Source: an uncultured Desulfobacteraceae bacterium
Lineage (GTDB): Bacteria > Desulfobacterota > DSM-4660 > Desulfatiglandales > Desulfatiglandaceae
Direction: 5' to 3'
Assembly: GCA_964483185.1 (NCBI GenBank)
Contig: CAZACO010000001.1
Span: 1 to 26,575 of the forward strand
Length of the DNA: 26,575 nucleotides
In this document: positions 11,702-26,575 of the stretch, piece after piece
Position numbering within the stretch: the stretch's first letter is position 1
Layout: each line of letters opens with the position of its first letter
The notes under the pieces: model-generated
Databases searched by the model: none
Seen by the model: the letters and a program-made list of their open reading frames with translations, nothing else
What the model was told of the DNA's origin: nothing
Translations under genes and position numbers: made by a program

Positions 11702-12361
11702 ATGGCAGAAACTGCGATTAACACCTATAAAACGAAGACCGAACTGGTCTACGATTACCTCCGAACGAATATTTTGCAGAAACATTTTAAACCCGGGGAT
11801 AAGATCATCATCCGCGAAATTTCCAAAATGTTAAACCTCAGCGATATCCCGGTGAGGGAGGCCATCAAGAAACTGGAGACCCAGGGGTTGCTTCATGTGG
11901 TTCCCCACACCGGAGCGCGGGTGGCCGAAATCGACCGAAAGGAGATGGAGGAGATTTATATCATTCGCAGCACCCTCGAGGCCCTAGCCACGCAATTAGC
12001 CTGCCCCTATATAAAGTCGGAAGACTTCCAGAGGCTGGAGAAAATATTGGGAAAGTACGAGGATACGTTTCGCGCTGGGAAATATGAGGCTCTAAGTGAA
12101 TTGAATAAAGAATTTCATCTGGAAATCTACAGATGTTCCCCCTACAAGAGCCTCTTCAAAATGATTGTGGAAATATGGGAGCGGTCAAAGATGATCCGCC
12201 ATGCCTTTTCTCTGCCCAGTTCTTTGCGGGAGCAGTCGATGAAAGAACATCGATTGATATTGCAATTGTTGCGAAAGGGGAACGGCGAAGAGGCGGCCGA
12301 ACTCGTGCGGAAGCAGAAAATTGCCTCGTGGAAGGTAATTTCAACGCTCATGGAAGAATGA
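11702..12361 (+). CDS. GntR family transcriptional regulator (wHTH + FCD domain)
   Basis: VYDYLRTNIL…KPGDKI…SDIPVREAIKKLETQGLL…PHTGARV (GntR HTH); FCD-type C-terminus (LNKEFH…EH..I). Confidence 0.95.
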   Translation: MAETAINTYKTKTELVYDYLRTNILQKHFKPGDKIIIREISKMLNLSDIPVREAIKKLETQGLLHVVPHTGARVAEIDRKEMEEIYIIRSTLEALATQLACPYIKSEDFQRLEKILGKYEDTFRAGKYEALSELNKEFHLEIYRCSPYKSLFKMIVEIWERSKMIRHAFSLPSSLREQSMKEHRLILQLLRKGNGEEAAELVRKQKIASWKVISTLMEE

Positions 12362-12486
12362 GGTTCTTTTAAACGGCATACCCGATACGATGGTTTTTCA
12401 ATTTGGTGTGATCAAGGAAGAGGCCCAGAAAAGATTGAGAAAACCATGAATGTCAGTTGCCGAAAATACAAAACAGGAGGTGCATT

Positions 12487-13473
12487 ATGGCAAAGGGAAG
12501 AAATTGGTCAAAAAGTAAATCTTGTTTCGTTTTAGTGGCATTGCTCATGGTACTATTTTACGCCTTTCCAGGGTTCGGAGAGGAATACCCATCCCAGACC
12601 ATCAAAATCATCGTGCCATATCCCCCAGGAGGAGTTACGGATTTAATCAGCCGATCCATGGCAGATACGATGGCCAAAGTGCTGGGGCAGCCGGTAATCA
12701 TCGAGAATAAGCCGGGTGGAGGAACGACTGTGGCTTATTCCCTTGTGGCCAACTCCAAGCCCGATGGGTATACAATCGGACATCTTGCCGTGGGGACTTT
12801 GGTTGGTAATTTTTTGGCTTATGACGTTGCTTACAACCCACTGAAGAGCTTTGACTACATTGGAGAAGTTGGGATCTATGCACAATCCATCATTGTTAAA
12901 TCAGATGCCCCCTGGAAGACGTGGGATGAATTTGTTGACTACTCCAAGAAACATCCCCAGAAGATCCGTATGGGCCTTACTAACCAGGTAAGCACCAATG
13001 CCATCCCTACCAAATGGATTAATCATCGATTGGGAAATCCATGGAAAGAAGTGGCCTTTCGTGGTGACACTCCATGTATTACCGCTCTATTAGGCGGGCA
13101 TATCGATGCTTTTGCGGGGGGAGGCGCCCATAACATATTGGTGAACGACGGCCGAGCAAGAATGCTTCTGGCTTTGACGAACAATCCGATCCCTGGTCAT
13201 CCAAATGTTCCGACCTTCAAGCAGGTATACGGCAAACCCGTAGGCAACTTTGCGGGTTACATGGCTCCGGCGGGACTACCTGCCGACGTCCTCAAAAAAC
13301 TGGAAAAGGCAACGAATGAAGCGACCAAGGCTCCGGAATTCCTCAAAGTGATGGAGAAGATGTCCATGACCCCGCTGTGGCGGAACGGTGAGGAACTGAC
13401 CGAGGAGGTGAAAACCCTGCTCTCAACTCTTGAAACATTTTATAAAGATTTAGGTAAACTGAAAAAGAAGTAA
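12487..13473 (+). CDS. tctC: Tripartite tricarboxylate transporter substrate-binding protein (TctC/Bug family)
   Basis: ATG 12487 follows AGGAGG. Signal peptide, then YPSQTIKIIVPYPPGGVTD, GQPVIIENKPGGG, KPDGYT, ALLGGHID, PNVPTF, APAGLP. Confidence 0.93.
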   Translation: MAKGRNWSKSKSCFVLVALLMVLFYAFPGFGEEYPSQTIKIIVPYPPGGVTDLISRSMADTMAKVLGQPVIIENKPGGGTTVAYSLVANSKPDGYTIGHLAVGTLVGNFLAYDVAYNPLKSFDYIGEVGIYAQSIIVKSDAPWKTWDEFVDYSKKHPQKIRMGLTNQVSTNAIPTKWINHRLGNPWKEVAFRGDTPCITALLGGHIDAFAGGGAHNILVNDGRARMLLALTNNPIPGHPNVPTFKQVYGKPVGNFAGYMAPAGLPADVLKKLEKATNEATKAPEFLKVMEKMSMTPLWRNGEELTEEVKTLLSTLETFYKDLGKLKKK

Positions 13474-13551
13474 AATTTTTGGACCTGTGTGATCAGTTTA
13501 TCGCAGCCTGGAAACAACCGGATTTGAGCGCATGAGTCGTCCGGTCACACA

Positions 13552-13609
13552 CGTGAAAAGTGAAGAATGAAACGTGAAATCTCCTTTACTCATGGAGTTT
13601 CACGTTTCA
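13552..13609. repeat. Intergenic hairpin built from 7-nt units
   Basis: CGTGAAA-AGTGAAG-AATGAAA-CGTGAAA (13552-13579). TGAAACGTGAAA(T)CTCC pairs with GGAGTTTCACGTTTCA (13594-13609) around a 9-nt loop. Confidence 0.8.
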
Positions 13610-13742: not shown

Positions 13743-14624
13743 GTGTCCAGGAAATTACCCAGGTTTGAATATTTCCGGCCAGAGAGTTTCCAAGAGGCGA
13801 TGGAAATTTTGAAGAAGCACGAGCACAAGATCCGCCCCCTGGCTGGCGGGACGGATCTGTTCATTGCGATGAAAGAAAAGGGGGCCGCATGGGAAAACGT
13901 TTTGGATTTGAAGGGCATCCCTGACTACGATTACATTCGAGAAGTGGACGGCGGGATCGAGATCGGGGCCCTGGCCACGATCCGTTCCGTGGAAACTTCC
14001 CCCTTGATTAAAGAGAAGATTCCTCTTCTGGCCTCTGCTGCGGGAACGATTGGATCCATCCAAATTCGAAACAGGGCCACCATAGGAGGGAATCTATGCA
14101 ATGCGGCTCCCTCAGCAGATACGGCCCCAGCCCTCCTTTGCCTGAGAGCCGAAGTGGAAATCATCGAGGAAGCGGGAGTAAGAAGGATTCCCCTTGACGA
14201 ATTTTTTGTGGGTCCGGGCAAAACACTACTCCGGGAGACTGCCCTTCTGAAGAAGATTTTTGTTCCCTTTCAACCTTTGAATAGTGCCGGCATTTATTTC
14301 AAAGAAAGTCCGCGCCGGGCCATGGATTTGGCTGTGGCCGGGGTGTCCTGCCTCATGACGTTCGATTCGGCCAAAAAGAAATGCCTTGATTGCCGAATCG
14401 CTTTGGGGGCTGTGGCCCCAACCCCCATGCGGGCGAAGAATGCTGAAAAACTTATGATGAACCAACAGATAACAGAAAAGGAAATCGCCGCAGCAGGAGA
14501 AACGGCCAGTGGAGAATGCAGTCCCATCAGCGATGTAAGGGGGTCTGCACAGTTCCGTCGAGAAATGGTGAGAGTATTTGTTGAAAAAGGTTTGCGTGAG
14601 TTATGGAGTGAGGTAAGGTCTTAA
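13743..14624 (+). CDS. Xanthine dehydrogenase family FAD-binding (medium) subunit, CoxM/CutM-like
   Basis: FEYFRP, LAGGTDL, IRNRATIGGNLCNAAPSAD, FFVGPGKT, ALGAVAPTP, PISDVRGSA. No 4Fe-4S insertion. GTG start after GAGGAGG. Confidence 0.94.
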   Translation: MSRKLPRFEYFRPESFQEAMEILKKHEHKIRPLAGGTDLFIAMKEKGAAWENVLDLKGIPDYDYIREVDGGIEIGALATIRSVETSPLIKEKIPLLASAAGTIGSIQIRNRATIGGNLCNAAPSADTAPALLCLRAEVEIIEEAGVRRIPLDEFFVGPGKTLLRETALLKKIFVPFQPLNSAGIYFKESPRRAMDLAVAGVSCLMTFDSAKKKCLDCRIALGAVAPTPMRAKNAEKLMMNQQITEKEIAAAGETASGECSPISDVRGSAQFRREMVRVFVEKGLRELWSEVRS

Positions 14625-14648
14625 CCTTGTTCTCCGAGGTATGGAAGC

Positions 14649-15200
14649 ATGAAACATTCTATTAAAATGGTTGTGAATGGGGAAGATTATGAGCTTGTGG
14701 TAAACCCAAATGAACTGCTCATTGATGTCCTGAGGGATCGATTGGATTTGACGGGGACGAAGGAGGGGTGCGGAACAGGGGATTGCGGGGCCTGCACGGT
14801 CCTGGTGGACGGCAAAGCCATCAATTCCTGCCTGACCTTGGCGATCGAGATGAACGACAAGGAGATCTTCACCATAGAAGGGATGGCCCCTGGGGGAAAA
14901 CTGAATCCGATCCAAGAGGCTTTTATCGATGAAGGAGCCGTCCAGTGCGGGTTCTGCACCCCCGGAATGATCCTATCTGCTAAGGCCCTGCTACAGGAAA
15001 AGCGCCTTCCCTCAGAAGACGAGATCAAGAGGGGAATCGCGGGCAATCTCTGCCGATGTACCGGCTATAAGAAAATCATTCAGGCCATTCAAACGGCAAG
15101 CCTGCGTTTGGGAAAAGAGAGCAATGCAACTGCTGGGCAATCCCGGGAAGCATGCCTTCGATCTGCGCCCCAGCAAGGGACCTGCCTTAGTTCGGAGTAA
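14649..15200 (+). CDS. Xanthine dehydrogenase family 2x[2Fe-2S] (small) subunit, CoxS-like
   Basis: GTKEGCGTGDCGACTV…NSCL, QCGFCTPG, GNLCRCTGY. Confidence 0.95.
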   Translation: MKHSIKMVVNGEDYELVVNPNELLIDVLRDRLDLTGTKEGCGTGDCGACTVLVDGKAINSCLTLAIEMNDKEIFTIEGMAPGGKLNPIQEAFIDEGAVQCGFCTPGMILSAKALLQEKRLPSEDEIKRGIAGNLCRCTGYKKIIQAIQTASLRLGKESNATAGQSREACLRSAPQQGTCLSSE

Positions 15201-15205
15201 TTCCA

Positions 15206-17482
15206 ATGAATAATTTTCAATTTATAGGGAAAAGGATACCCGTCATTGATGCCAAGGAGAAGGTAACTGGCGAGGCCAAGTATACAGCCGATCTGAAATT
15301 TCCCCATATGCTTTACGGTAAAATTCTACGGAGCCCCCACCCCCACGCAAGAGTCCTGAATATCGATATCAGCCGCGCACAAAAGATCCCCGGAGTCAAA
15401 GCCATCGTGACCGGAGAACAGATCCCTAAGAAAAAAATAGGCGCCTTTATCGAAGATCAATATATCCTGGCCGTGGATAAAGTACGTTATATCGGAGAAG
15501 AAATCGCGGCGGTAGCGGCCATCGATGAAGAGACAGCAGAGGAAGCCTGTAATCTGATCGAAGTAGACTACGAGGTTCTCCCGGCAGTTTTTGATGTGGA
15601 AAAGGCCATCTTGCCGGATGCTCCGCGGATCCACGAGGAAGCCGTGAACAACATTGCCATGCGGCTAGATATCAATCGGGGAGATGTCAAGACAGGGTTT
15701 GAAGAATCTGATTATATCTTTGAGGAACGCTTTAGCACACCAAGTGTACATCAGGGTTATATGGAGCCCATGGCTGCGATTGCTTCGTTTGATATCCATG
15801 GCAGAATGACCCTGTGGGCTCCGGTTCAACATATCTACTTGGCCCGGGCTCATTTAGCCAAGGCCTTGAGTATGCCGGTGAGCGCCATCCGCGTCATCCA
15901 ACCTAAAGTGGGCGGCGGATTCGGTGGTAAAACTGCTGATCAGATGAGCATCCCGATTTGTTGTGTGCTGGCCAAAGCGACCCAAAAACCTGTGAAGCTT
16001 GTCTTGACCCGAAAGGAGGAGTTTATTTCAGGCAGGCCACGAGTGGCAACCGTTATTTATTTAAAGATGGGTGTAAAAAGCGACGGGACCTTCATGGCCA
16101 AGGAAGCCAGAATTTTTTCGGACAATGGAGCTTATTCAGGGAAAAGTCCCTCCATTATGACGACCACTGCAATCCGCGCTGATGCCCTTTATCAATACAA
16201 GAATGTCAAAGCCGAAGCCAACTTGGTCTATACAAACAAAGTGCCCACAGGAGGCTATCGCGGATTTGGGAATCCCCAGATGGCCTTTGCGGTTGAAAGT
16301 CTTATTGACACCATTGCCCACCAGCTTGAATTGGACCCACTCGAGATTCGTCTGAAGAATGCTGTCGAACCGGGTATGACAACAGTCCACGGATGGAAGA
16401 TCAAGAGCTGCGGCTATCGGGAGTGTATTACAAAAGCGGCGGCCGCCGCAGAATGGAACAGGTATAAAAAAGGGAAGCGTACTGCCAAGATCGGCGTAGG
16501 GATCGCCGGGGCTGCGGATGTAAGCGGGAATAAGCACTTCGGCTATGATGGTTCGAACATTCTCCTAAAAATAACCGAAGATGGAAAAGCCAGGATCATC
16601 TCTGGCGAAGGAGATATCGGCCAGGGTGGAACAACCATATTGACACAGATTGTCGCTGAGGAATTGGGGATTCCTTTGGAAGAGATAGAGGTCTCGGTGG
16701 CCGATACAGATTCAACCCTCTTTTGCTTGGGTGCCTTTGCAAGCCGTTTAACTACGCTGGCTGGCAATGCGGTAAAATTAGCAGCGGCGGATGCTAAAAG
16801 ACAGCTTTTTGATATCGCTGCAAAGGTTCTGGAAGCGAATCAGGAGGATTTATTGTGTAAAAATGGAAAAGTATTTGTGCAGGGGTCTTTAGAAAAAAAG
16901 TTGACGATAGCCGAAGTCATGCAGGCAGGACTTCTGAAATTGGGGAAATTCGGCAATATCAATATCCTGGGCCGAGGTTCTTTTGACCCGGATTCTGAAG
17001 TATGGGACCCTAAGAGCAAATATGGAAATATCGCCAGCACCTATCAATTTGCGGCCCATGTCGCGGTGGTGAAAGTATGCGAGGAAACTGGCCACATACA
17101 GATATTGGATTATGCGGCTGCGCACGATGTTGGCCGGGCCATTAACATGCTGACTTTGGAAGGTCAAATTGAAGGAGGGGTTACCCAGGGAATCGGATAT
17201 GCCCTATGGGAAAATTATTTGTTTAAAGACGGCAAGCTTCTCAATCCTAATTTTACTGACTTCAAAATCCCTCTGGCCCCGGATTTACCACCCATCAAAA
17301 ACATCATTGTCGAACCTGGGGATCCTGTAGGCCCATTTGGGGCGAAAGGCGTGGGTCAGACCCCCTTGGTTCCTGCGGCACCGGCAATTGCCAACGCTAT
17401 CTTTGATGCGGTGGGGGTAAGGATTACCGATTTACCCATCACTTCCGGTAAAATCCTGCAGGCCTTACGGGAAAGAAAATGA
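15206..17482 (+). CDS. Xanthine dehydrogenase family molybdopterin-binding (large) subunit 1
   Basis: KVTGEAKYTAD, LRSPHPHA, HQGYMEP, VGGGFGGK, GYRGFGNPQ, DIGQG, GAFASR, EGQIEGGVTQGIG, GPFGAKGVGQ. Confidence 0.95.
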   Translation: MNNFQFIGKRIPVIDAKEKVTGEAKYTADLKFPHMLYGKILRSPHPHARVLNIDISRAQKIPGVKAIVTGEQIPKKKIGAFIEDQYILAVDKVRYIGEEIAAVAAIDEETAEEACNLIEVDYEVLPAVFDVEKAILPDAPRIHEEAVNNIAMRLDINRGDVKTGFEESDYIFEERFSTPSVHQGYMEPMAAIASFDIHGRMTLWAPVQHIYLARAHLAKALSMPVSAIRVIQPKVGGGFGGKTADQMSIPICCVLAKATQKPVKLVLTRKEEFISGRPRVATVIYLKMGVKSDGTFMAKEARIFSDNGAYSGKSPSIMTTTAIRADALYQYKNVKAEANLVYTNKVPTGGYRGFGNPQMAFAVESLIDTIAHQLELDPLEIRLKNAVEPGMTTVHGWKIKSCGYRECITKAAAAAEWNRYKKGKRTAKIGVGIAGAADVSGNKHFGYDGSNILLKITEDGKARIISGEGDIGQGGTTILTQIVAEELGIPLEEIEVSVADTDSTLFCLGAFASRLTTLAGNAVKLAAADAKRQLFDIAAKVLEANQEDLLCKNGKVFVQGSLEKKLTIAEVMQAGLLKLGKFGNINILGRGSFDPDSEVWDPKSKYGNIASTYQFAAHVAVVKVCEETGHIQILDYAAAHDVGRAINMLTLEGQIEGGVTQGIGYALWENYLFKDGKLLNPNFTDFKIPLAPDLPPIKNIIVEPGDPVGPFGAKGVGQTPLVPAAPAIANAIFDAVGVRITDLPITSGKILQALRERK

Positions 17483-17545: not shown

Positions 17546-18001
17546 ATGAAGGAATATGACCTTTACGGTGGTCTGTTCTGGCTGCTCATGGCCATTTTTG
17601 TGAGCGTCATGGGGGTGAAGTTTGGCCTGGGGACCCTCGGATATCCCGGCCCCGGATTTTTCCCCTTTCTGGTGGGTCTAATATTGTTCTGCTTCTCTTT
17701 CGGCATCATCATTATTGCCTTTAAAGAAAAAGCCAAAGGGCCAGGGTTTACGGAATGGCCGTTTTTCGGAAAAAAGGTCTTTGCTACCCTGGCCATTCTA
17801 TTCGCCTACTCTTTTTCCCTTGAATATCTCGGATTCATTATTGGTTCATCTCTCTTAATGTTTTATCTCTTCAAGGTACCCGGGGCCCAAAAGTGGTGGC
17901 TTTCCGCGACCGCCACAGTGGTTACAATTGCCCTGGCGTACTATTTTTTCGTAGTCCTGCTGAAGGCGCAGTTACCGAAAGGGCTCTTGGATATGGGTTA
18001 G
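17546..18001 (+). CDS. tctB: Tripartite tricarboxylate transporter small membrane subunit TctB
   Basis: Four TM helices, GPGFFP motif, LEYLGF, C-terminal L..QLPKG; directly upstream of tctA. Confidence 0.88.
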   Translation: MKEYDLYGGLFWLLMAIFVSVMGVKFGLGTLGYPGPGFFPFLVGLILFCFSFGIIIIAFKEKAKGPGFTEWPFFGKKVFATLAILFAYSFSLEYLGFIIGSSLLMFYLFKVPGAQKWWLSATATVVTIALAYYFFVVLLKAQLPKGLLDMG

Positions 18002-18116
18002 GCGCCGATATAGAGGTGGTCCAATCCCGGATGGCTCATCACTATAGAACCTTGAGAAAATGAAAACCGGTAACTGCCTGAAGTTGCTTGGCATTTACTT
18101 CTTTAGGGATATTAGA

Positions 18117-19655
18117 TTGGATACTTACAGCAGCATCGTTTTAGGATTAGAAATCGGGCTGTTGCCGATGAATTTACTCTTTTGTTTTATAGGGGTACTG
18201 ACTGGAACTCTAGTGGGAGTGCTTCCGGGGGTCGGACCGGTGGCGGCGATGGCCCTGCTTTTGCCCGCTACGTTCCACATAGCCCCGGCGGCTGCTATCA
18301 TCATGCTGGCCGGAATCTATTACGGGTCGATGTACGGCGGATCAACCACCTCCATCTTGGTCAATATCCCCGGGGAAGCAGGTTCCGTGATTACCTGCCT
18401 GGATGGATATCAGATGGCCCGCAAGGGGAGAGCGGGCCCCGCCTTAGGCATATCCGCCTTTGGTTCTTTCATCGCCGGAACGTTCGGGGTGTTGATCCTG
18501 ATGCTAATCGCCAATCCGATGGCGGAATTTGTATTGAAATTCGGCCCTCCTGAATATTCTGCCGTCATGGTCCTTGGCTTGAGCTTATTGATTTATCTTG
18601 CTCAGGGATCCAGAATTAAGGCGCTGGTGATGGCCTGTTTTGGTTTGATTCTCAGCTTTATCGGCATTGACGTTTTGACCGGGCAGCATCGGTTGAATTT
18701 CGGATCGATGAACTTCGCGGAAGGCGTCGGGTTGGTCCCCGTGATTATGGGAGTCTTCGGCATCTCCGAAGTATTGATCAACATGGAACAGATGACGAAG
18801 CAGGAGATCTATGAGACGAAAATCCGCGGGCTTTTCCCATCATTGAACGACTGGGCGAGGTCGAAATGGCCGATCATTCGTGGTTCGGTCCTGGGTTTCA
18901 TTCTGGGGGTTCTCCCCGGAGGCGGGCCAACCCTGGCGGCCTTTGCGAGTTACGCCCTGGAAAAAAAGATATCCAAGCACCCGGAAACATTTGGAACCGG
19001 TGCCATTGAGGGAGTCGCAGGACCCGAGTCTGCCAACAATTCCGCCACGTCAGGAGGTTTTATTCCCTTGTTTCTCATCGGGATTCCCACCAATGGGATT
19101 CTGGCAATGCTTTTCAGCGCCCTTCTGATTCACGGCCTTCAGCCTGGACCGTTATTGCTGCAGCAGAACCCCGAGGTCTTTTGGGGAGTAGTGATGAGCA
19201 TGTATATCGGGAACGTGATGCTTCTCGTATTAAACCTGCCTTTGATCGGAGTCTGGATAAAAATATTGAAGATACCCTATCCGATTCTATTTCCCCTGAT
19301 CATATTCTTTTGCTTAATCGGCTCCTACAGCATTAACAACAACGCATTGGACGTAATCGTCATGTTGATTTTTGGCTTGATCGGTTATGTCATGAGAAAG
19401 TTCGGTTACGAGGGTGCCCCGCTGATTCTGGCCCTTATTCTGGGTCCGATGCTGGAGCGGTCCTTCATTCAATCCCTGAACATGTCTGGGGGGACCTATC
19501 AGATATTCTTCGGGAGCGTCATTTCCGCCGTAACGATGATCATTGCATTGGGCGTGATCTTTTCCTCGTTAATCCCGCTTTTACGAAAGAGAAGTCCAGT
19601 AACCGAGAGTTTTTCGAAGAAATGCTCAGAGGACCGTGTTACTGTTGAGGACTAG
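18117..19655 (+). CDS. tctA: Tripartite tricarboxylate transporter large membrane subunit TctA
   Basis: GTLVGVLPGVG, YYGSMYGGS, NIPGE, DGYQMARKG, GPESANN, GIPT, GLQPGP. The likely start is TTG 18117 (MDTYSS…); the ORF track uses 18060. Confidence 0.95.
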   Translation: MDTYSSIVLGLEIGLLPMNLLFCFIGVLTGTLVGVLPGVGPVAAMALLLPATFHIAPAAAIIMLAGIYYGSMYGGSTTSILVNIPGEAGSVITCLDGYQMARKGRAGPALGISAFGSFIAGTFGVLILMLIANPMAEFVLKFGPPEYSAVMVLGLSLLIYLAQGSRIKALVMACFGLILSFIGIDVLTGQHRLNFGSMNFAEGVGLVPVIMGVFGISEVLINMEQMTKQEIYETKIRGLFPSLNDWARSKWPIIRGSVLGFILGVLPGGGPTLAAFASYALEKKISKHPETFGTGAIEGVAGPESANNSATSGGFIPLFLIGIPTNGILAMLFSALLIHGLQPGPLLLQQNPEVFWGVVMSMYIGNVMLLVLNLPLIGVWIKILKIPYPILFPLIIFFCLIGSYSINNNALDVIVMLIFGLIGYVMRKFGYEGAPLILALILGPMLERSFIQSLNMSGGTYQIFFGSVISAVTMIIALGVIFSSLIPLLRKRSPVTESFSKKCSEDRVTVED

Positions 19656-19666
19656 CTTAGGAGAGG

Positions 19667-20461
19667 ATGAACTCTATGATAATCTTGCGATACCAGTGGA
19701 AGGGGATGATCAGGTGGGGCATTCTGGAAGGGGAAGAGAAGATCTTCGCGTTGGAAGGAGATCTTTACGGCGATTTTGGAAAAGGCAAAGAAGTCTGCCG
19801 TTTGGCTGATGTCAAGCTCCTCGCCCCTGCAGAACCGACCATCATGGTAGCCTGCGGCATGAACTATCGGGCACGGTTCCTAGAAGGCGGGTTGAAGGAG
19901 GAGCCGCAGGAGCCAATCCTTTTCTTTAAGCCTGCAACAGCGGTGATCGGTTCTTTTGAAGACGTGGTTTTTCCGGCGATTGCGCGAGAAATGCGCTATG
20001 AGGGTGAGCTATGCGTGGTCATGAAGAGGCATGCCAGAAATGTATCGGAGAAAGATGCAATGCGTTATGTATTAGGATACACCTGCGGGAATGAGTTGGG
20101 GGCAATGGATCTAATGAAGAAGGACCGTTGGATGACAAGGGCCAAAGGCTTCGACACCTCCGGCCCCCTGGGTCCTTTTCTTGTCACGGATCTCAATCCT
20201 CATGGCCTGTCGATCAAGAGCCGGCTCAATGGCCAAACCAGACAAGACAGCCATACGAGCCTCATGATTTTTCGGGTGGAAAAGCTGATCAGTTATATTT
20301 CGGAGTTTATGACCCTTCGCCCCGGAGACGTCATCTGGACAGGTACCCCTGCTGGGAACAGCAATGTGAAGGTGGGGGATCTCATGGAAGTCGAGATCGA
20401 AGGAATCGGAATCCTTAGCAACAGGGTTGTTGCGTCGAGTAATTCTGGAAAAAGAGCGTGA
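19667..20461 (+). CDS. Fumarylacetoacetate hydrolase (FAH) family protein
   Basis: EPILFFKP, YEGEL, GYTCGNE, RAKGFDTSGPLGP, TLRPGDVIWTGTP, GDLMEVEIEGIGILSN. Confidence 0.92.
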   Translation: MNSMIILRYQWKGMIRWGILEGEEKIFALEGDLYGDFGKGKEVCRLADVKLLAPAEPTIMVACGMNYRARFLEGGLKEEPQEPILFFKPATAVIGSFEDVVFPAIAREMRYEGELCVVMKRHARNVSEKDAMRYVLGYTCGNELGAMDLMKKDRWMTRAKGFDTSGPLGPFLVTDLNPHGLSIKSRLNGQTRQDSHTSLMIFRVEKLISYISEFMTLRPGDVIWTGTPAGNSNVKVGDLMEVEIEGIGILSNRVVASSNSGKRA

Positions 20462-20520: not shown

Positions 20521-21309
20521 ATGGAGCAAATTACGGGAAATGTATTCTATGAGAATAGATTTCGGGGATGCAATCTTGGCCTTGTGGTCACCGATGATGG
20601 TGTTGTCCTGATCGATACCCCTGTGGATTTTGAAGTTGCCCAAGGGTGGATGGGGGAGATTGCCAAACGAGGGGAAGTTCGCTGTATCATCAATACGGAA
20701 CATCACATGGACCACTGGTTGTGCAACGGGCTCTTTGCGGGGGACATCATCGCCCATGAAGCAACCCGGGAGACCATGCTGACCATGGATCTCGATTTCA
20801 TCGCCAAGCGAACACAGATCCTCTATCTTGAGCCCCACCAAATCCCGGAGGGGTATCAACTGAAGTATCCAAACATGACCTACCACGGGAGGATGACACT
20901 CTATTTTGGGAAACACACCTTTCATCTCATTCATACTCCTGGCCACACTCCCGGAGTCACGGCCGTTTATATTCCTGAAGAGAGGGTAGTCTTCACGGGT
21001 GATAACGTCGTCGGCGGGACCCGTACAGCCTACCACGATGCCCTGCCCGAAAAATGGATCGAGTCCCTCAAGCGGCTGCAAGACCTGGATATCCAAACAG
21101 TGCTTCCCGGCCATGGAAAGGTGTGCGATAAAGCATATTTGAAGCAGCAGGCGGAGATCGTACACGGATGGTGGCAAGGAACACAAAAAGCCAAGACCGA
21201 AGGCATCCCTTTTGACGATGAGGCGAAACGCAAAATCGATCCCTTTTTCGATTTTCGAGACACCGGGATCAGACCTACGGTGACTTTGACCGCCACATCG
21301 GCCCGATAA
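20521..21309 (+). CDS. Metallo-beta-lactamase-fold hydrolase (cyclase-like group)
   Basis: ATG 20521 follows AAGGAG. NLGLV…GVVLIDTP, INTEHHMDH, HTPGHT, FTGDN, PGHG. Confidence 0.9.
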   Translation: MEQITGNVFYENRFRGCNLGLVVTDDGVVLIDTPVDFEVAQGWMGEIAKRGEVRCIINTEHHMDHWLCNGLFAGDIIAHEATRETMLTMDLDFIAKRTQILYLEPHQIPEGYQLKYPNMTYHGRMTLYFGKHTFHLIHTPGHTPGVTAVYIPEERVVFTGDNVVGGTRTAYHDALPEKWIESLKRLQDLDIQTVLPGHGKVCDKAYLKQQAEIVHGWWQGTQKAKTEGIPFDDEAKRKIDPFFDFRDTGIRPTVTLTATSAR

Positions 21310-21353: not shown

Positions 21354-22583
21354 ATGTCACAAGGTAAAGATGAAAGCCCATGGGTAGCGCCGGGGAAGTG
21401 GTCTGTCAGTCCCTACTGCTACGAGCCTGAGGTAAGAACTGATTGGCGGCTGCCCAAGGAGATTGCTATTCATGATGTTACTCTCAGAGATGGGGAGCAG
21501 ACGCCGGGGGTTGTCTTCCGAAAGGATGAAAAATTGAAAATAGCTCATGCCCTGGAGGATGCCGGCGTGCAGCGCATCGAGGGAGGCATGATTTCCACCT
21601 CCGAGGAAGATTTCGATGCAATCCGGGCCATGGTACGGGAAATCAAAAGATCCGAGGTGGCCTGCTTCTGCAGGGCACGACGCGACGACCTAGAACGGTC
21701 TCTCAAGGCCGGGGTACACCGGGTCATCATGGAGATAACCGCCCAGGATCCGATCATTAGAAAGATTTGGGGGAGCCGGGGGAAGGCGGTAGAAGAGATC
21801 ATCAAATTGGCTCAATTTGCTAAGACCAACGGTCTCAAGGTTACTTTCTTCCTCATGGAAAGCAGCCGAAGCCCACTGGATCTCCTGCGGGATTTCATTG
21901 TCCCGGTTGTTCGGGAGGGGAAGGTAGACCATGTCACGATCGTGGATACACGCGGATCAGCTTTCCCCCCCGCTTTCGCCTGGATAGTCTCCCAGGTCAA
22001 GCAATGGGTGCAGATTCCGGTTGAGGTCCATTGCCATAACAACTGGGGGCTGGCTACGGCTGCGACTCTGGCTGGAATCACGGCCGGGGCCGAGGTGGTT
22101 CACACCTGCATTAACGGGATGGGTGGCAACGCATCGCTGGATGAAATCGTTATGGGCGCCGAAGCTCTCTTGGGGGTGAAGACCGGCGTGAAGACGGAAA
22201 TGTTCCAGGAGATGTCCGCGAGGGTCAGAGAGATGTCCGGGGCCGACTGGTACAAGCCTTTTGTTGGGTCCCTGACTTCCCAGGTAGAGGTGGGCATCGC
22301 CACCCGGCAGATGTGGGATCGACGCAATGAAAAGGGGTATGGGCGGGCAGAACCGCTCAATTATGAGGTTGTTGGGGGGAAGGCGGTCGAGTTGGCGCTA
22401 GGGAAAAAGAGTGGAAGGTATTCGATGATGCTGAAGGCATGGGAGCACGGCCTGCCTCAACCTTCTGAAGAGCAGGCAACCGAAATGGTGAGTAGGGTGA
22501 AAAAGATTTCGGAAGCCGAAAAACGTCTGGTCACGGACGAGGAATTCAAGAAGATATACACCCAGGTCTGCGATGCTGGATAG
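21354..22583 (+). CDS. DRE-TIM metallolyase (HMGL-like; homocitrate/isopropylmalate synthase-like catalytic domain, no regulatory domain)
   Basis: IHDVTLRDGEQTPG, EVHCHNNWGLA.A..LAG..AGA, GMGGNA, LGKKSG. The start is ATG 21354, or TTG 21348. Confidence 0.88.
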   Translation: MSQGKDESPWVAPGKWSVSPYCYEPEVRTDWRLPKEIAIHDVTLRDGEQTPGVVFRKDEKLKIAHALEDAGVQRIEGGMISTSEEDFDAIRAMVREIKRSEVACFCRARRDDLERSLKAGVHRVIMEITAQDPIIRKIWGSRGKAVEEIIKLAQFAKTNGLKVTFFLMESSRSPLDLLRDFIVPVVREGKVDHVTIVDTRGSAFPPAFAWIVSQVKQWVQIPVEVHCHNNWGLATAATLAGITAGAEVVHTCINGMGGNASLDEIVMGAEALLGVKTGVKTEMFQEMSARVREMSGADWYKPFVGSLTSQVEVGIATRQMWDRRNEKGYGRAEPLNYEVVGGKAVELALGKKSGRYSMMLKAWEHGLPQPSEEQATEMVSRVKKISEAEKRLVTDEEFKKIYTQVCDAG

Positions 22584-22713: not shown

Positions 22714-23295
22714 ATGGCGCCTGTGAGGAAATCCGAGGAGAGGAAAAAGTTGCGGAATCATTCCGTGGCCGAGAAGAAAGATAATCTGCCCAGGTTGGTT
22801 CGGCGCCTTTCAGTAAACGTGAACGGAAAGCAGGTTGAACTGGATGTCGATTCCCGCATGACCCTGGCTGAGTTCTTGCGCGAAAAGCTGGGTTTGACCG
22901 GCACGAAAGTGGGCTGCAACCGTGCCGAGTGCGGGAGCTGCACGGTCCTGCTTGACGGGAATCCCGTATATTCCTGCACTACATTGGCCGTGGAAGCGGC
23001 TGGCAGGAAAGTTGTGACCATTGAAGGGTTGGCAGTCAATGGTCAACTCCATCCGATTCAAGAAGCCTTCATTGAGCTGGACGCTCTCCAGTGCGGATTC
23101 TGCACACCCGGGATGATTCTGTCCCTTAAAGCCTTTCTGGAAAACAAGTTCCGGCCTACAGACGAAGAGATTAGAATTGCTATCGACGGAAACCTTTGTC
23201 GCTGCGGCTGCTATCCCAATATCATCCATGCAGCCAAAACCGCAGCCGAAAAAATGACACCTATCCGGGGTGGGGGAGAGGGAAAGGATGGATAG
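22714..23295 (+). CDS. Xanthine dehydrogenase family 2x[2Fe-2S] subunit (PaoA/YagT-like)
   Basis: GTKVGCNRAECGSCTV…YSCT, QCGFCTPG, GNLCRCGCYPNI. Charged N-terminal extension without a hydrophobic signal. Confidence 0.94.
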   Translation: MAPVRKSEERKKLRNHSVAEKKDNLPRLVRRLSVNVNGKQVELDVDSRMTLAEFLREKLGLTGTKVGCNRAECGSCTVLLDGNPVYSCTTLAVEAAGRKVVTIEGLAVNGQLHPIQEAFIELDALQCGFCTPGMILSLKAFLENKFRPTDEEIRIAIDGNLCRCGCYPNIIHAAKTAAEKMTPIRGGGEGKDG

Positions 23296-25624
23296 GAACA
23301 AACTGCTCGTGGTAGGGACTCCCCCTCCCCCTTTGAGCAGAAAGTATACTATCGTCGGCAGGTCGCTGAACCGCAGAGACGGGCTGGAGAAGGTTACTGG
23401 ACGTGCTGAGTATGCGGGTGATATAAGGCTGCCTGATATGCTCTATGGAAAGATTCTCCGTTGTCCCCATCCGCGGGCCAGGATTTTGAAAATTGATACT
23501 CGCAAGGCGGAAAGTCTGCCGGGCATCCACGCTGTATTAACGACAGAGAACACCAAGGGTTGGCGCACCTACTGGTACGAAATTCCCCAGATAGCCTTTC
23601 CGGAGTGCCTCACCTACGAGGGTCAGGAAGTAGCCGCAGTTGCGGCCGAGGACGTGGATATCGCGCAAAGGGCCTTGGAACTCATCGAGGTAGAGTATGA
23701 GATCCTAACCCCGATGCTGAATGCGGAGGAAGTGCTGAATAGTCCACCCATCCCCTGCATTGCCGATGAAGAGTATCCCGGAAGGGAGCTTTTCGACCGA
23801 AAAAAAATGGTCGTAAAGCGAGGAGATGTGAAGAAAGGCTTTGCCGAAGCCGACGTCATCATTGAAGAGACCTATACAACCCAGACTTCCTACCATGGGA
23901 CGATCCAGACCCGGGCCTGTGTTGCCCATTGGGATGGGAAAAACCTTACCATTTGGGATGCCACCCAGGGGGTATGGAACTCAAAAGGAGCGCTGGCCAG
24001 GGCCTTCGACCTCAATCCGGAGAACGTCCGGGTAATTGTAAAGTACTTAGGAGGAGGGTTCGGCTCCAAGGCCTGGTCGCAGAGGATCTCTTTTTATGCG
24101 GCCAAACTTTCACTCATGACGGCGAGACCTGTCCGAATAGAGCGGACAAGGAGAGAGGAATTCTTGGCCCATCCTCACCGATGGGATATTAAATTCTATC
24201 TGAAGATGGGGGCCAGGAGAGATGGAACCCTGACCGCCATCTCCCAAAGAGCCATTGTAAATATCGGCGCGGCCGCGGCTGAAACCAATTACTATGCCAT
24301 CAGCATCAACTGGCATGCCTCCAATCTTTATGCCTGCCCGAACGTGGATCTCGAACAAACCGGGGTGTTCACCAACCTGCAACTCACAGGGCCGACCCGT
24401 GCTCCCTTCAATATGGCGGCGATCTTTGTAATTGAATCGCACATAGACAAATTGGCCCGTCGGTTGGGCATAGACCCGTTGCAATTGAGACTGAAGAACT
24501 ACACCGACTTCGGCAAAACGCATCTCGCTCCAGCCCTTTATGGTCAGGAGGTTAACATTCGATACGGGAGCAAAAAGCTGGACGAATGCATGAAGTGGGT
24601 GACGGAAGCGGTCGGGTGGGAGAGACGAAAAGATCTAAACAATCCTCCGGAAAGCCAAAAACGACGTGGAATTGGTATGGCGGCTTTTATCGCCAACCAG
24701 GGAAGCGGCCGAACGCCGAATACCGCCCATGCGGATGTGATCATCAAAAATGACGGAACCATCCATTTGTTGATCGGTGTGGTGGATATCGGCGCCGGAC
24801 AGCAAACGGTCTTTTCCATGATCGCGGCCGAGGAACTTGGGGTTAATTTCGAAGATGTCATTCCGATGGTCGGAGATACGAAGGATACGAAATATGCTCC
24901 TTCCTCCCACTCTTCACGTGTAACCGCCGAGATGGGCCCGGCCGTATTGATGGCGGCTGCGGAAGCCAGAGACCGACTCTTTGCCCTCGCCGGTAAAATG
25001 CTGGGAGTGAAACCGAATCTGCTCGAATCTAGATACGGGGAAATCTATCTGAAATCAGATAATTCCAAGTCTATCCCCTTTAAGGATGTGTGCAGAAAAA
25101 TAGATCCGAACCGGCCCATTAAAGGGAGTGGAAGCAGAGCGACCAATCCTGATGATCCCATGTTTGCCACATTCGGTGCCCACGCTGCAGAAGTAGAAGT
25201 GGATATGGGGACAGGGGAGGTGACCCTCTTGAGGATGGCCGCTGCACATGATTTCGGAAAGGCGATCAACCCAAAGCTTTGTGTATCACAAATCTACGGC
25301 GGTATAGAATTCGGCGTAGGATACGCCCTGATGGAAGAGGGTATCTTCGACCGGAGAACGGGAAAGATGCTCAATGCCAACCTGCATCATTACCGCATGC
25401 CCACTTCCCTCGATTTCCCTCCTGTAGAGGTCTTTCTGCTTGAAAGTGAGAATCCATGGTTCGCTTATTCTGCAAAGGGGGGGGCGGAAGTCACAAACAC
25501 CCCTACCCCGGCAGCCATAGGAAATGCCATCGCGAACGCACTGGGGGAAATCCGACTTAATGATTTGCCTCTGACAACAGATAAGATCATTCAGGCGATC
25601 CGTAACAAAAACAAAGAGGGTTAG
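23288..25624 (+). CDS. Xanthine dehydrogenase family molybdopterin-binding subunit 2 (PaoC/YagR-like)
   Basis: KVTGRAEYAGD, LGGGFGSK, TRAP (RAPG-type loop), DIGAGQ, SHSSRVT, QIYGG…GVG, AKGGAE. The start is ATG 23288, overlapping the stop of the small subunit. Confidence 0.94.
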   Translation: MDRNKLLVVGTPPPPLSRKYTIVGRSLNRRDGLEKVTGRAEYAGDIRLPDMLYGKILRCPHPRARILKIDTRKAESLPGIHAVLTTENTKGWRTYWYEIPQIAFPECLTYEGQEVAAVAAEDVDIAQRALELIEVEYEILTPMLNAEEVLNSPPIPCIADEEYPGRELFDRKKMVVKRGDVKKGFAEADVIIEETYTTQTSYHGTIQTRACVAHWDGKNLTIWDATQGVWNSKGALARAFDLNPENVRVIVKYLGGGFGSKAWSQRISFYAAKLSLMTARPVRIERTRREEFLAHPHRWDIKFYLKMGARRDGTLTAISQRAIVNIGAAAAETNYYAISINWHASNLYACPNVDLEQTGVFTNLQLTGPTRAPFNMAAIFVIESHIDKLARRLGIDPLQLRLKNYTDFGKTHLAPALYGQEVNIRYGSKKLDECMKWVTEAVGWERRKDLNNPPESQKRRGIGMAAFIANQGSGRTPNTAHADVIIKNDGTIHLLIGVVDIGAGQQTVFSMIAAEELGVNFEDVIPMVGDTKDTKYAPSSHSSRVTAEMGPAVLMAAAEARDRLFALAGKMLGVKPNLLESRYGEIYLKSDNSKSIPFKDVCRKIDPNRPIKGSGSRATNPDDPMFATFGAHAAEVEVDMGTGEVTLLRMAAAHDFGKAINPKLCVSQIYGGIEFGVGYALMEEGIFDRRTGKMLNANLHHYRMPTSLDFPPVEVFLLESENPWFAYSAKGGAEVTNTPTPAAIGNAIANALGEIRLNDLPLTTDKIIQAIRNKNKEG

Positions 25625-25628
25625 GCCC

Positions 25629-26575
25629 TTGCTTTACGAAATCCCTATTTTGAAACATATCGATGCGCAGAATGTCCAGGAGGCGATTTTCTGGCTACAC
25701 GATTATCTGCCGAGAGCAAAAGTGATAGCTGGGGGTACGGATCTGTTAAGTCTGATAAAAGACCGGGTGGAGGTCCCCGAACTTCTGGTCAACATTAAAC
25801 CGATTCCCCAGGCGAACCGGATGGATTATGACGAAAAACAAGGCTTACGCATAGGCGCTGCAGTTTCCTTGAAACAGCTGCAGTCGTGTAAGGTGATCCA
25901 AAAAAAATATCCTCTTTTAGCGGTCACCGCTCAGCAAGTCGGTACGACGCAGATTCGAAATATGGGCACAATCGGAGGGAATATCCTTCAGAGACCTCAG
26001 TGCATGTACTTTAGAAATCCTGATTTTTTTTGCCGCAAGAAGGGGAAAACCAGATGTTACGCCGTCACCGGGGAACACCGGGACTATTATGCCATTTTTG
26101 ACCATGGAAAATGCATCATGGCCCATCCCTCGGACATGGCTCCGGCTCTTGTTGCCCTAAGGGCCAAAGCCGTCGTGGTCAACAGGGAGGGAGAAAGGCA
26201 GGTCCCTTTAGAGGATCTGTTCGTGGGGCCGAATCACTTACAGGAGACGGTCCTGCAACCGGATGAATTGCTGTTAGGCTTCCATGTGCCGAACCCTGAC
26301 GGGCTGGCTTTTCAATCCTTCCTCAAACATCGAATCAGACGATCATTCGATTTTGCTCTAGCGAGCGTCGCCGTGGCTGCGAACCTATCAGACGGAATCT
26401 GTCTGGATATCAGGGTCGTCCTTGGGGGCGTCGCCCCTTTTCCGTACCTGAATTCAGATCTTTCGAAAATGCTTCAGGGAAAAAGGCTCACCCGGGAAAT
26501 CGCTCAGGAAACCGCAGAGGCATCAGTCAAAGGGGCCCGTCCGCTTCCTATGAACCGCTATAAGGTTGAACTGAC
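25629..26575 (+). CDS. Xanthine dehydrogenase family FAD subunit with [4Fe-4S] insertion (PaoB/YagS-like), 3' end outside the window; missed by the ORF track
   Basis: TTG 25629 after AAGAGGG; the frame is open to the window end. IAGGTDL, QIRNMGTIGGNILQRPQCMYFRNPDFFCRKKGKTRCYAVTGEHRDYYAIFDHGKCIMAHPSD (4 Cys), SFDFALAS, LGGVAP, ARPLPMNRYKVEL. Confidence 0.94.
   Translation, partial: MLYEIPILKHIDAQNVQEAIFWLHDYLPRAKVIAGGTDLLSLIKDRVEVPELLVNIKPIPQANRMDYDEKQGLRIGAAVSLKQLQSCKVIQKKYPLLAVTAQQVGTTQIRNMGTIGGNILQRPQCMYFRNPDFFCRKKGKTRCYAVTGEHRDYYAIFDHGKCIMAHPSDMAPALVALRAKAVVVNREGERQVPLEDLFVGPNHLQETVLQPDELLLGFHVPNPDGLAFQSFLKHRIRRSFDFALASVAVAANLSDGICLDIRVVLGGVAPFPYLNSDLSKMLQGKRLTREIAQETAEASVKGARPLPMNRYKVEL

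Follow-up and report, generated by a model that had tools for sequence, protein, structure and literature searches.

A block of 13 genes on the 26,575-nucleotide contig CAZACO010000001.1 of an uncultured Desulfobacteraceae bacterium (assembly GCA_964483185.1; the whole contig is hereafter the window) constitutes a genuine, discrete operon for anaerobic catabolism; it is rare and uncharacterised, and the chance that it holds new enzyme chemistry is fair. The block (positions 11702–26575) encodes a GntR-type regulator, a complete tripartite tricarboxylate transporter (TTT; TctA, TctB and TctC by Pfam), two molybdenum enzymes of the xanthine oxidase family (large subunits MoA and MoB, FAD subunits FADa and FADb, iron-sulfur subunits FeSa and FeSb), an enzyme of the fumarylacetoacetate hydrolase (FAH) superfamily, a metallo-beta-lactamase (MBL)-fold hydrolase and a DRE-TIM protein. 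We propose, with a rough probability of 0.4, that this GntR-repressed operon would serve the uptake and degradation of an anionic heteroaromatic carboxylate without O2 or CoA activation, the likeliest substrate being a pyridine-2-carboxylate of the picolinate, quinolinate and dipicolinate family or a pyrone or furan analogue.

All 13 open reading frames (ORFs) of the block lie on the + strand, separated in order by 125, 269, 24, 5, 63, 58, 11, 59, 44, 130, −26 and 5 nucleotides (nt), in agreement with the original prediction, made from the letters of the DNA, of 13 co-oriented genes with mostly short gaps or overlaps. The family assignments of that prediction also hold: Pfam bears out genes 1 to 10 with the domains listed in Table 1, NCBIfam identifies genes 11 and 12 as a second 2Fe-2S subunit and a second molybdenum subunit, and gene 13 is a truncated FAD subunit, the contig ending inside FADb. 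Ten of the cluster proteins, all but TctA, TctB and the truncated FADb, were run against NCBIfam, and every match falls under its curated equivalog cut-off. No described pathway with this gene set was found in the full-text literature searched, whose coverage is incomplete, so that this is absence of evidence only. Nor do Pfam and NCBIfam reveal in the block an oxygenase, a CoA ligase, the CoxL motif or genes of nicotinate fermentation, the last three absences having been predicted.

The block is conserved as a unit. The closest metagenome-assembled genome (MAG), likewise of an uncultured Desulfobacteraceae bacterium (GCA_964639275.1; L001, which is also locus L010), carries the same 13 genes in the same order, its DRE-TIM protein being 96% identical. 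A second assembly (GCA_975956325.1; L006), related at 68–85% amino acid (aa) identity, retains the same order from TctC to FADb; MBL and FeSb are separated there by what is left of the DRE-TIM gene, and the stretch examined gave no match to the regulator. Short JGI contigs preserve fragments of this order, namely FAH-MBL-FeSb-MoB (L095), MBL-FeSb-MoB (L098), FAH-MBL (L096 and L104) and TctCBA-TctC-MBL (L099), and the adjacency of FAH and MBL recurs in the window, L001, L006, L007 (twice), L095, L096 and L104. The genes therefore co-occur in other genomes as the coherent catabolic operon first proposed, and not as a chance mosaic. The genes downstream of position 26575 were read in L001, where gene 13 encodes 333 aa and the subsequent genes lie on the opposite strand; the operon therefore ends after FADb, which is 89% identical in L001 and 68% identical in L006.

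The full cluster is rare. A scan of GTDB species representatives confirmed 547 MBL relatives, and among the best 80 loci kept from it, 1 (L010) holds the complete set. Nucleotide identity between the window and L001 is mosaic, at 81% over 11516–17492 (GntR to MoA) and 91% over 17546–26570 (TctB to FADb). Protein identities are 74% for MoA, 80% for FADa and 85–96% for the others, and the MoA of the window lies nearer to two further homologues (P0242 and P0243, 81%) than to that of L001, a pattern pointing to recombination or to an accelerated evolution of the MoA module.

The homology to L001 starts at 11516, slightly upstream of a sigma-70-like promoter. The genomic context was judged from L001, the relative whose upstream flank is comparable; there the M48 peptidase that neighbours the cluster in the window, the sole upstream gene compared, was not found. 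Since the homology begins just before the promoter and the upstream flank is not shared, the block appears to possess its own promoter in differing genomic contexts. An AT-rich palindromic repeat, ATATGATATATGATATA (also written ATATGATAT), sits in the promoter spacer and the −10 element and is conserved in L001 together with the promoter; by its sequence and placement it is a candidate operator for the GntR protein. This regulator is 92% identical in L001 and has 58% and 46% identical paralogues in L007.

Closer examination of the catalytic elements sets MoA apart from other members of its family. MoA contains the Ald_Xan_dh_C and MoCoBD_1/2 domains of the xanthine oxidase family and adjoins 2x[2Fe-2S] and FAD subunits. 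Among solved structures it comes closest to the alpha subunit of 4-hydroxybenzoyl-CoA reductase (HcrA; 1rm6_A, 468 bits), NdhL/M being weaker, and it scores 667 bits against the NCBIfam model of the same subunit, whose cut-off is 995. FADa best matches XdhB (240 bits, cut-off 310) and reaches 126 bits against the reductase beta model (cut-off 405). At the site of the catalytic glutamate (G-x-G-E, the equivalent of bovine E1261), however, MoA reads GVGQTP, with glutamine at position 718. Glutamate occupies this position in all five PDB chains aligned, namely NdhM of Eubacterium barkeri, HcrA, KdhL, the CoxL-like 8uem and 4zoh. The glutamine is kept in the ten closest MoA orthologues (71–81% identity, including L001 and L006), and glutamate is found in every remoter homologue examined. 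The glutamine clade also replaces histidine with aspartate at position 438, where HcrA and 40 of 40 distant homologues have histidine, and further carries alanine-to-glycine beside the RGFG motif and Phe211-to-Tyr; these co-occurring substitutions represent one phylogenetic event, not independent replicates. We take the changed positions to fall in or near the bovine xanthine dehydrogenase (XDH) segments E802, R912–F914 and F1005–L1014. The glutamine variant occurs only with FAH-MBL-MoB (3/3 loci of known context), and the glutamate variant only in a different cluster, type II, described below (5/5). As judged from these residues, MoA may not be a canonical hydroxylase.

MoB presents a different picture. 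Besides the domains and partner subunits of the xanthine oxidase family it keeps the catalytic glutamate, within KGGAEVT, in the window, L001 and L006. Its best PDB matches are 1rm6_A (309 bits), 8uem (260), 5y6q_C (247) and PaoC (236), and it scores 477 bits against the NCBIfam model for the 4-hydroxybenzoyl-CoA reductase alpha subunit, again with a cut-off of 995. The small subunits FeSa and FeSb reach 182 and 170 bits against the gamma model of that enzyme (NCBIfam cut-off 258), and NCBIfam matches to PaoA and PaoC lie far under cut-off. The L001 orthologue of FADb matches 5y6q_B of the Methylobacillus aldehyde oxidase best (157 bits), followed by PaoB (111) and HcrB (89); four of its cysteines, also present in the fragment encoded in the window, align with the [4Fe-4S] cysteines of PaoB and 5y6q_B. 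FeSb bears a conserved, strongly basic N-terminal extension of about 30 residues (MAPVRKSEERKKLRNHSVAEKKDNLPRLVRR...; window 22714–22810) that FeSa lacks. The translation of this N-terminus contains no Tat-like hydrophobic region, and since its small subunit lacks a Tat signal, MoB would be cytoplasmic. Taken together, MoB may be an aldehyde oxidoreductase of the ferredoxin-linked aldehyde-oxidase type. The two molybdenum hydroxylases originally predicted are thus both XDH-family enzymes, but the label of hydroxylase fits neither simply: MoA lacks the catalytic glutamate, and MoB is served by a PaoB-type FAD subunit with a [4Fe-4S] insert.

The two enzymes encoded side by side between the transporter and the second molybdenum enzyme, FAH and MBL, also depart from their families. 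The FAH protein is most similar to the C-terminal domain of HpaG (1gtt, 207 bits), is nearest to HpaG/HpcE and FAHD1-type enzymes, and carries the E-x-E / D metal ligands and the lysine of the superfamily in its YEGEL and AKGFD motifs. The histidine of G-x-N-Y-x-x-H is replaced by arginine, giving GMNYxxR in 7/7 MBL-linked orthologues in which the motif region is covered, that of the window included; histidine is kept at this position in the HpaG C-terminal domain, 3rr6, 4pfz, 3qdf and 2dfu. The MBL fold is supported by a model with a predicted local distance difference test score (pLDDT) of 92 and by Foldseek E-values of 1e-13 to 1e-17 to MBL structures. By this model, the closest structures, among Foldseek matches that include 8d2z, appear to be an uncharacterised Burkholderia protein, the chlorothalonil hydrolytic dehalogenase Chd and B1 lactamases; searching the literature for the PDB code of the MBL structure nearest to it brought up unrelated papers only. 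Its metal motif reads E-x-H-x-D-H instead of H-x-H-x-D-H, and E60, H62, D64, H65, H142, D161 and H198 are invariant in 20 sequences. The glutamate of this motif is also present in a homologue from Rhodococcus sp. USK13.

The DRE-TIM protein belongs to a widespread family of isopropylmalate synthase (IPMS)-like proteins of about 410 aa with at least 113 members. The metal-site motifs TLRDGEQ and HCH are invariant in 113 sequences, and VEVGIA aligns with HESGIH of 3rmj, so that the HxSGxH histidines are absent in 113/113 family members. On reading the translations, both histidines are likewise gone at the aligned positions of the DRE-TIM proteins of L007, L094 and L011. The histidine that we take to be catalytic in the Claisen step, H379 of Mycobacterium tuberculosis LeuA, is absent here. 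Because the HxSGxH histidines are missing, an acetyl-CoA Claisen condensation is unlikely; an aldol or lyase role is more plausible from the sequence, and the family is probably not a synthase. The best NCBIfam match is LEU1_arch at 257 bits, with cut-offs of at least 463. Homologues at 72–75% identity (L002–L005 among the family) lie in unrelated loci beside class III aminotransferases, RidA, 2-hydroxyacid dehydrogenases and creatinase/M24-type hydrolases. The gene is absent from L095 and L098 and degraded in L006, and the DRE-TIM protein is therefore considered accessory. Because loci without DRE-TIM still keep MoB, a scheme in which a DRE-TIM aldolase feeds MoB was abandoned as the main model. 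The DRE-TIM lyase foreseen as part of the pathway is thus present in the block, though as an accessory without the Claisen histidines. All four non-standard active sites that had been pointed out at the outset (glutamate to glutamine and histidine to aspartate in MoA, histidine to arginine in FAH, ExHxDH in MBL and the loss of the HxSGxH histidines in DRE-TIM) were verified and are conserved.

Comparison of related loci reveals the modular construction of the operon. The conserved core consists of TTT, MoA, FAH-MBL and MoB, and FAH-MBL with TTT also exists without any molybdenum enzyme. The 25.6-kb contig L007, examined over positions 1–18670, encodes at least three tctBA pairs, four tctC, two GntR/FCD regulators, two FAH-MBL pairs whose MBLs are 70% and 59% identical to that of the window, and a distant DRE-TIM protein; no molybdenum enzyme was found in the 18.7 kb examined. 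A second kind of cluster, type II (L090–L094; for example L091, 3350–22271), is built around a glutamate-bearing sister 65–72% identical to MoA. It encodes an IclR regulator, an aspartate-aminotransferase-like protein, an IPMS-like DRE-TIM protein, an OadA/PycB-type carboxyltransferase, a DoeB-like N-acyl-amino-acid deacylase, a TfrA/NadB-like flavoprotein with an SdhB N-domain, the MoA sister, TctB, a class II aldolase/PhtC-like protein, an FAD subunit, a tungsten-type aldehyde ferredoxin oxidoreductase (AFOR), an Ldh_2 dehydrogenase, TctA, TctC, a 2Fe-2S subunit and a second TctC. The TctC of the window is 55% identical to that second TctC (L091). The MoA gene lies between tctC and tctBA in the window, and the sister gene likewise sits among TTT genes in type II. 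By its genes, this cluster resembles a pathway for an N-heterocycle or N-acyl-aspartate under anaerobic conditions, apparently set up to supply aspartate or oxaloacetate out of an N-acyl amino acid.

The FAH-MBL pair is also found on Rhodococcus plasmids. Plasmid pUSK13_1 of Rhodococcus sp. USK13 (L106, 541917–560693) encodes GntR, FAH, an ExHxDH MBL, a transporter of the major facilitator superfamily (MFS), an aldehyde dehydrogenase (ALDH) and two amidohydrolases, one of them TRZ/ATZ-like, and the locus adjoins an NtaA-type FMN monooxygenase with flavin reductases. On a second plasmid, from Rhodococcus ruber, a short-chain dehydrogenase/reductase, FAH and MBL lie beside a flavoprotein with a Baeyer-Villiger fingerprint. 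As read from these sequences, FAH-MBL forms a portable module, frequently accompanied by an aldehyde oxidiser, that would combine a ring hydrolase with an oxo-acid enzyme. A MoA homologue on a Caballeronia plasmid (42% identity) was also considered as a clue and dropped, its aerobic dioxygenase context being uninformative.

From the gene content, operon unity, modularity and cofactor and active-site features that were observed, we infer the substrate of the proposed pathway, the sequence of its steps and each of its reactions. TctCBA would import the acid. MoA, with molybdenum cofactor (Moco), 2x[2Fe-2S] and FAD, would then oxidise a ring carbon with water to yield a cyclic (vinylogous) amide or ester of the pyridone or pyrone kind; the remodelled site of MoA (glutamate to glutamine, histidine to aspartate) would either accommodate the carboxylate of the substrate or relocate the catalytic base. 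The ExHxDH MBL would open the ring hydrolytically, and in the case of an N-heterocycle ammonia would be lost by enamine hydrolysis. FAH would decarboxylate, tautomerise or cleave the resulting 2-oxo or 2,4-dioxo polycarboxylate to pyruvate or oxaloacetate and a short acid or semialdehyde. MoB would oxidise the released aldehyde, or a second ring position, and pass electrons via its [4Fe-4S]-FAD subunit to ferredoxin and possibly Rnf. Where present, the DRE-TIM protein would catalyse an aldol-type step, rather than an acetyl-CoA Claisen condensation, on the final 2-oxo acid. As a purely hypothetical worked example, picolinate could be converted to 4-pyridone-2-carboxylate, then to formylacetyl-pyruvate and NH3, then to pyruvate and malonate semialdehyde, and finally to malonate, each core enzyme being used once. 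Precedent for hydroxylation of a pyridine-2-carboxylate at C-4 exists in quinaldic acid 4-oxidoreductase. Modules without molybdenum enzymes, such as L007, could take already oxygenated analogues (comanate, chelidonate, chelidamate).

Several observations point to this kind of substrate. The TTT importer, the loss of a negative residue in MoA (glutamate to glutamine) and the gain of arginine in FAH suggest a poly-anionic compound. An N-heterocyclic carboxylate is suggested for the MoA family because the glutamate-bearing sister sits in the type II cluster with a similar TctC. An oxo-acid step is assigned to FAH because its relatives act on 2-oxo and 2,4-dioxo dicarboxylates. In three independent settings, FAH-MBL or MoA is found together with an aldehyde oxidiser: MoB in the window, ALDH in Rhodococcus and AFOR in the type II cluster.

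A number of points weigh against this assignment. All cluster carriers are metagenome-assembled with no cultured carrier among them, and no RNA runs carrying the FAH-MBL stretch were found. Hydroxylation by MoA is uncertain because its catalytic glutamate is replaced, and replacement of this residue reportedly abolishes hydroxylase activity in the XDHs studied (E730 variants of the Rhodobacter capsulatus enzyme). We know of no precedent for the direct hydrolysis of aromatic pyridones, and the block genes include no dedicated deaminase or amidase for an N-heterocycle. Acylpyruvate hydrolases use a His/Glu dyad (FAHD1), and a role of FAH as a C-C hydrolase is weakened because the dyad histidine is missing from the cluster enzyme. 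Given its similarity to HcrA, MoB might act on the ring instead of an aldehyde. Finally, in 72 loci with MBL homologues of 40–47% identity, mostly from Dehalococcoidia, no partner occurs in more than 12 loci, and the commonest partners are acyl-CoA-type enzymes.

The gene set can also be read as a route for an aliphatic or sugar-derived lactone, an alternative we regard as doubtful. MoA and MoB would then both be aldehyde oxidoreductases (glyceraldehyde-dehydrogenase or PaoABC-like), MBL a lactonase, FAH either a dehydratase of 2-keto-3-deoxy acids or a hydrolase of 2,4-diketo acids, on the pattern of non-phosphorylative pentose or deoxyhexose pathways, and DRE-TIM a terminal aldolase. The small and medium subunits do give good scores, though under cut-off, with the beta and gamma models of glyceraldehyde dehydrogenase, FADb is closest to aldehyde oxidase subunits, and FAH matches L-2,4-diketo-3-deoxyrhamnonate hydrolase at 110–136 bits; the FAH-MBL context in R. 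ruber is moreover in the style of a Baeyer-Villiger monooxygenase and lactone route. Yet Pfam and NCBIfam detect no sugar-acid dehydratase, sugar dehydrogenase or kinase in the cluster, both large subunits are nearer to HcrA than to any solved aldehyde oxidoreductase, the type II sister cluster looks nitrogenous (aminotransferase, N-acyl-amino-acid deacylase), and the DRE-TIM gene that would supply the terminal aldolase is dispensable.

It is quite unlikely that the substrate is instead a phenolic, carbocyclic acid, with one or both molybdenum enzymes acting like 4-hydroxybenzoyl-CoA reductase on free acids to remove or shift ring hydroxyls with low-potential electrons, and with MBL and FAH processing the dearomatised or ring-opened product. 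HcrA is the best solved match of both large subunits and its model tops NCBIfam for both, but the scores lie far under the equivalog cut-off (667 and 477 bits). The four-cysteine insert of FADb, reminiscent of HcrB, is on the subunit of MoB and is nearer to PaoB and aldehyde oxidase than to HcrB, while MoA's own FADa lacks it. Loss of the general base in MoA could suit a non-hydroxylating direction, yet HcrA itself retains the glutamate, and neither the block nor L001 offers a CoA ligase, a ring reductase or beta-oxidation-like genes.

An equally improbable arrangement is one of co-transcribed but semi-independent modules, with TTT, FAH and MBL handling one acid, the MoA and MoB modules funnelling other precursors or detoxifying aldehydes, and DRE-TIM as a passenger. 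FAH-MBL-TTT without molybdenum enzymes in L007, MoA-type enzymes with wholly different partners, DRE-TIM homologues in unrelated neighbourhoods and the mosaic identity to L001 are all in keeping with it. Against it stand one promoter with short gaps, which tie the genes together, the strict pairing of the glutamine MoA with FAH-MBL-MoB and of the glutamate MoA with type II, and the direct MBL-FeSb-MoB adjacency on five contigs; because of this pairing and adjacency a single pathway is favoured. Chance juxtaposition or an assembly chimera might be suspected of a rare cluster on a metagenomic contig, but the identical order in independent assemblies from separate studies at several levels of divergence, and the presence of the stretch in at least 12 listed metagenome runs, effectively refute it.

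The heteroaromatic carboxylate reading admits a bolder form, which we think rather unlikely in full. The MoA clade with Gln-718 and Asp-438 would be a new catalytic subtype of the xanthine oxidase family that dispenses with the universal glutamate, working through a relocated aspartate base or through assistance from the substrate carboxylate. Combined with the ExHxDH MBL, the histidine-to-arginine FAH and a PaoABC-like enzyme linked to ferredoxin, it would make up a new pathway that cleaves the ring of pyridine carboxylates by hydrolysis throughout, without CoA or O2, candidate substrates being picolinate, quinolinate and the spore-derived dipicolinate of anoxic sediments.

Table 1. Genes and other features of the block in the window.
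Feature	Position	Strand	Description
Sigma-70-like promoter TTGACA-18-TAGAAT	11549..11578	+	11/12 consensus match
GntR/FadR-type regulator	11702..12361	+	Winged helix-turn-helix + FCD effector domain, 219 aa; Pfam GntR 54 bits, FCD 78 bits
TctC, periplasmic solute-binding protein of TTT	12487..13473	+	Pfam TctC 159 bits
12-bp perfect inverted repeat, intercistronic RNA hairpin	13568..13609	+	In 269-nt gap 3' of tctC; no U tract
FADa, FAD-binding medium subunit of MoA	13743..14624	+	293 aa, no Cys insert; Pfam FAD_binding_5 + CO_deh_flav_C
FeSa, 2x[2Fe-2S] small subunit of MoA	14649..15200	+	Pfam Fer2 + Fer2_2; both Cys motifs seen in translation
MoA, molybdopterin-binding large subunit	15206..17482	+	758 aa; Pfam Ald_Xan_dh_C + MoCoBD_1/2; closest to HcrA; Q718, D438
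TctB, small membrane subunit of TTT	17546..18001	+	Pfam TctB 72 bits
TctA, large membrane subunit of TTT	18060..19655	+	Pfam TctA 547 bits
FAH-superfamily enzyme, HpcE/HpaG-like	19667..20461	+	Pfam Rv2993c_N + FAA_hydrolase (201 bits)
MBL-fold metallohydrolase	20521..21309	+	262 aa; Pfam Lactamase_B; NTEHHMDH motif
DRE-TIM protein, IPMS/homocitrate-synthase clade	21354..22583	+	409 aa; Pfam HMGL-like
FeSb, 2x[2Fe-2S] small subunit of MoB	22714..23295	+	NCBIfam glyceraldehyde dehydrogenase gamma, XdhC and HcrC matches, all under cut-off
MoB, second molybdopterin large subunit	23270..25624	+	784 aa; KGGAEVT keeps catalytic Glu
FADb, FAD subunit of MoB	25629..26575	+	315 of ~333 aa, cut by contig end; C-x9-C-x7-C-x18-C insert

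The start codons of four genes in Table 1 (TctC, MBL, DRE-TIM and FADb) were adjusted. TctC probably starts at 12487, downstream of the opening of its ORF at 12457, and its L001 orthologue has 328 aa. The MBL start at 20521 gives a length that agrees with all homologues, the DRE-TIM start at 21354 gives the protein P0001, and FADb starts with TTG at 25629 rather than at 25630. The true start of TctA may lie about 19 codons further downstream, the L001 orthologue having 512 aa. An exact-sequence look-up of the DRE-TIM protein with two start codons gave no match, and it is in the collection via this contig alone. An antisense ORF of 362 aa (20293–21381, − strand) spans the end of FAH and the whole of MBL; lying opposite a coding strand, it is probably spurious. 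The hairpin 3' of tctC has the arms TGAAACGTGAAA and TTTCACGTTTCA and folds at −27.1 kcal/mol (z = −4.5). Its arms are kept in L001 and its loop differs, and it may act as an mRNA-stabilising or processing element. An Rfam scan of the window found no riboswitch or other RNA family, and no Moco riboswitch upstream of the molybdenum genes.

Upstream of the block, the window carries at 147–3896 (+ strand) the 3' part of an rnf operon, with two Rnf-Nqr membrane subunits (RnfE/RnfA-like), an RnfB-like polyferredoxin and an ApbE flavin transferase. These genes fit a ferredoxin-based anaerobic energy metabolism and could accept electrons from MoB. Their presence on the same contig, the uncultured Desulfobacteraceae relative and the salt-marsh and sediment origin of the metagenomes support the anaerobic setting first suggested for the cluster, whose host is related to sulfate reducers. 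Between them and the block, 3928–11255 (− strand) encodes a DnaB helicase, ribosomal protein L9, a DUF2232 protein, a GDP-mannose 4,6-dehydratase, a second GDP_Man_Dehyd/epimerase-family protein and the M48/Ste24-type peptidase, housekeeping genes that are unrelated to the cluster. The metagenome runs listed as carrying the FAH-MBL stretch come from metagenomes of salt marsh and freshwater sediment.

If the proposed reading is correct, genes of the operon could serve as markers for the degradation of heteroaromatic carboxylates in sediments without oxygen. Only aerobic, oxygenase-dependent clusters surfaced in the literature searched for several such compounds, dipicolinate included, and it has been argued that dipicolinate makes up a very large pool of carbon in sediments (PMC11472048). 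In MoA, the xanthine oxidase family would have a natural member without the glutamate held indispensable for hydroxylation, and MoA and its glutamate-bearing sisters would form a ready pair for dissecting the mechanism of the family. The FAH-MBL pair, seen in Desulfobacteraceae-type MAGs, in unassigned metagenome contigs and in Rhodococcus, would become established as a portable module for ring opening and oxo-acid processing. The type II cluster, a second and larger uncharacterised TTT-linked cluster, merits a study of its own.

Among known systems, the closest solved relative of both MoA and MoB is 4-hydroxybenzoyl-CoA reductase (HcrCAB/HbaBCD; 1rm6), an enzyme of anaerobes with the same three-subunit Moco/2x[2Fe-2S]/FAD architecture. 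One FAD subunit of the cluster, FADb, contains a four-cysteine insert, as HcrB does, but is nearer to PaoB and 5y6q_B than to HcrB. In contrast to HcrCAB, the cluster proteins miss all three equivalog cut-offs, MoA has glutamine and aspartate where HcrA has glutamate and histidine, and FADa, the partner of the more HcrA-like MoA, lacks the [4Fe-4S] insert. The context differs too, with no aryl-CoA ligase or benzoyl-CoA pathway genes in the block, L001 or L006, and the substrate of the cluster would enter through the TTT importer as the free acid. PaoABC of Escherichia coli (5g5g) and the Methylobacillus aldehyde oxidase (5y6q) share with FADb the [4Fe-4S] insert and its four aligned cysteines, and with MoB the catalytic glutamate; unlike PaoABC, FeSb has no Tat signal, MoB is slightly nearer to HcrA, and MoB sits in a catabolic operon beside FAH-MBL.

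The proposed route would resemble the nicotinate fermentation of E. barkeri in joining an anaerobic, water-dependent molybdenum hydroxylation of a pyridine carboxylate to a hydrolytic opening of the ring. That fermentation employs NdhFSLM (3hrd), 6-hydroxynicotinate reductase, enamidase, a B12-dependent 2-methyleneglutarate mutase and dimethylmalate lyase. Neither the 13 genes nor those downstream in L001 include homologues of the reductase, enamidase, mutase or lyase, and here the ring hydrolase would be an MBL and the subsequent enzyme an FAH. The pic and dip clusters of Alcaligenes faecalis JQ135 degrade related compounds: pic begins with a three-component molybdenum picolinate dehydrogenase (10.1101/530550), and in dip a GntR/FadR repressor senses pyridine dicarboxylate while the pathway is independent of Moco (PMC11472048). 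Both pathways employ O2-dependent mono- and dioxygenases after or instead of the molybdenum step (10.1101/530550; PMC11472048), unlike the block, which has no oxygenase domain. The text of neither paper mentions a tripartite or tricarboxylate transporter, and no hydrolase is mentioned for dip, the gene lists themselves being unchecked.

At the level of single enzymes, FAH shares the fold and the E-x-E/D and lysine motifs of HpaG/HpcE and FAHD1 but has arginine for histidine and misses the equivalog cut-offs. The DRE-TIM protein shares TLRDGEQ and HxH with isopropylmalate, homocitrate and citramalate synthases, but HESGIH is changed to xVEVGIA, there is no regulatory domain, and all its matches lie under cut-off. 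A locus that resembles the cluster in overall design is the uncharacterised one of Rhodococcus sp. USK13, with the same type of GntR regulator, the FAH-MBL pair, an ExHxDH MBL (32% identity), a carboxylate-type transporter and an aldehyde oxidiser. It differs in its aerobic host, in having MFS for TTT, an NAD-dependent ALDH for MoB and a nearby FMN monooxygenase for MoA, and in an FAH of another subfamily (34% identity). Since Rhodococcus sp. USK13 is cultured, the chemistry of the FAH-MBL pair is genetically testable at this aerobic counterpart locus.

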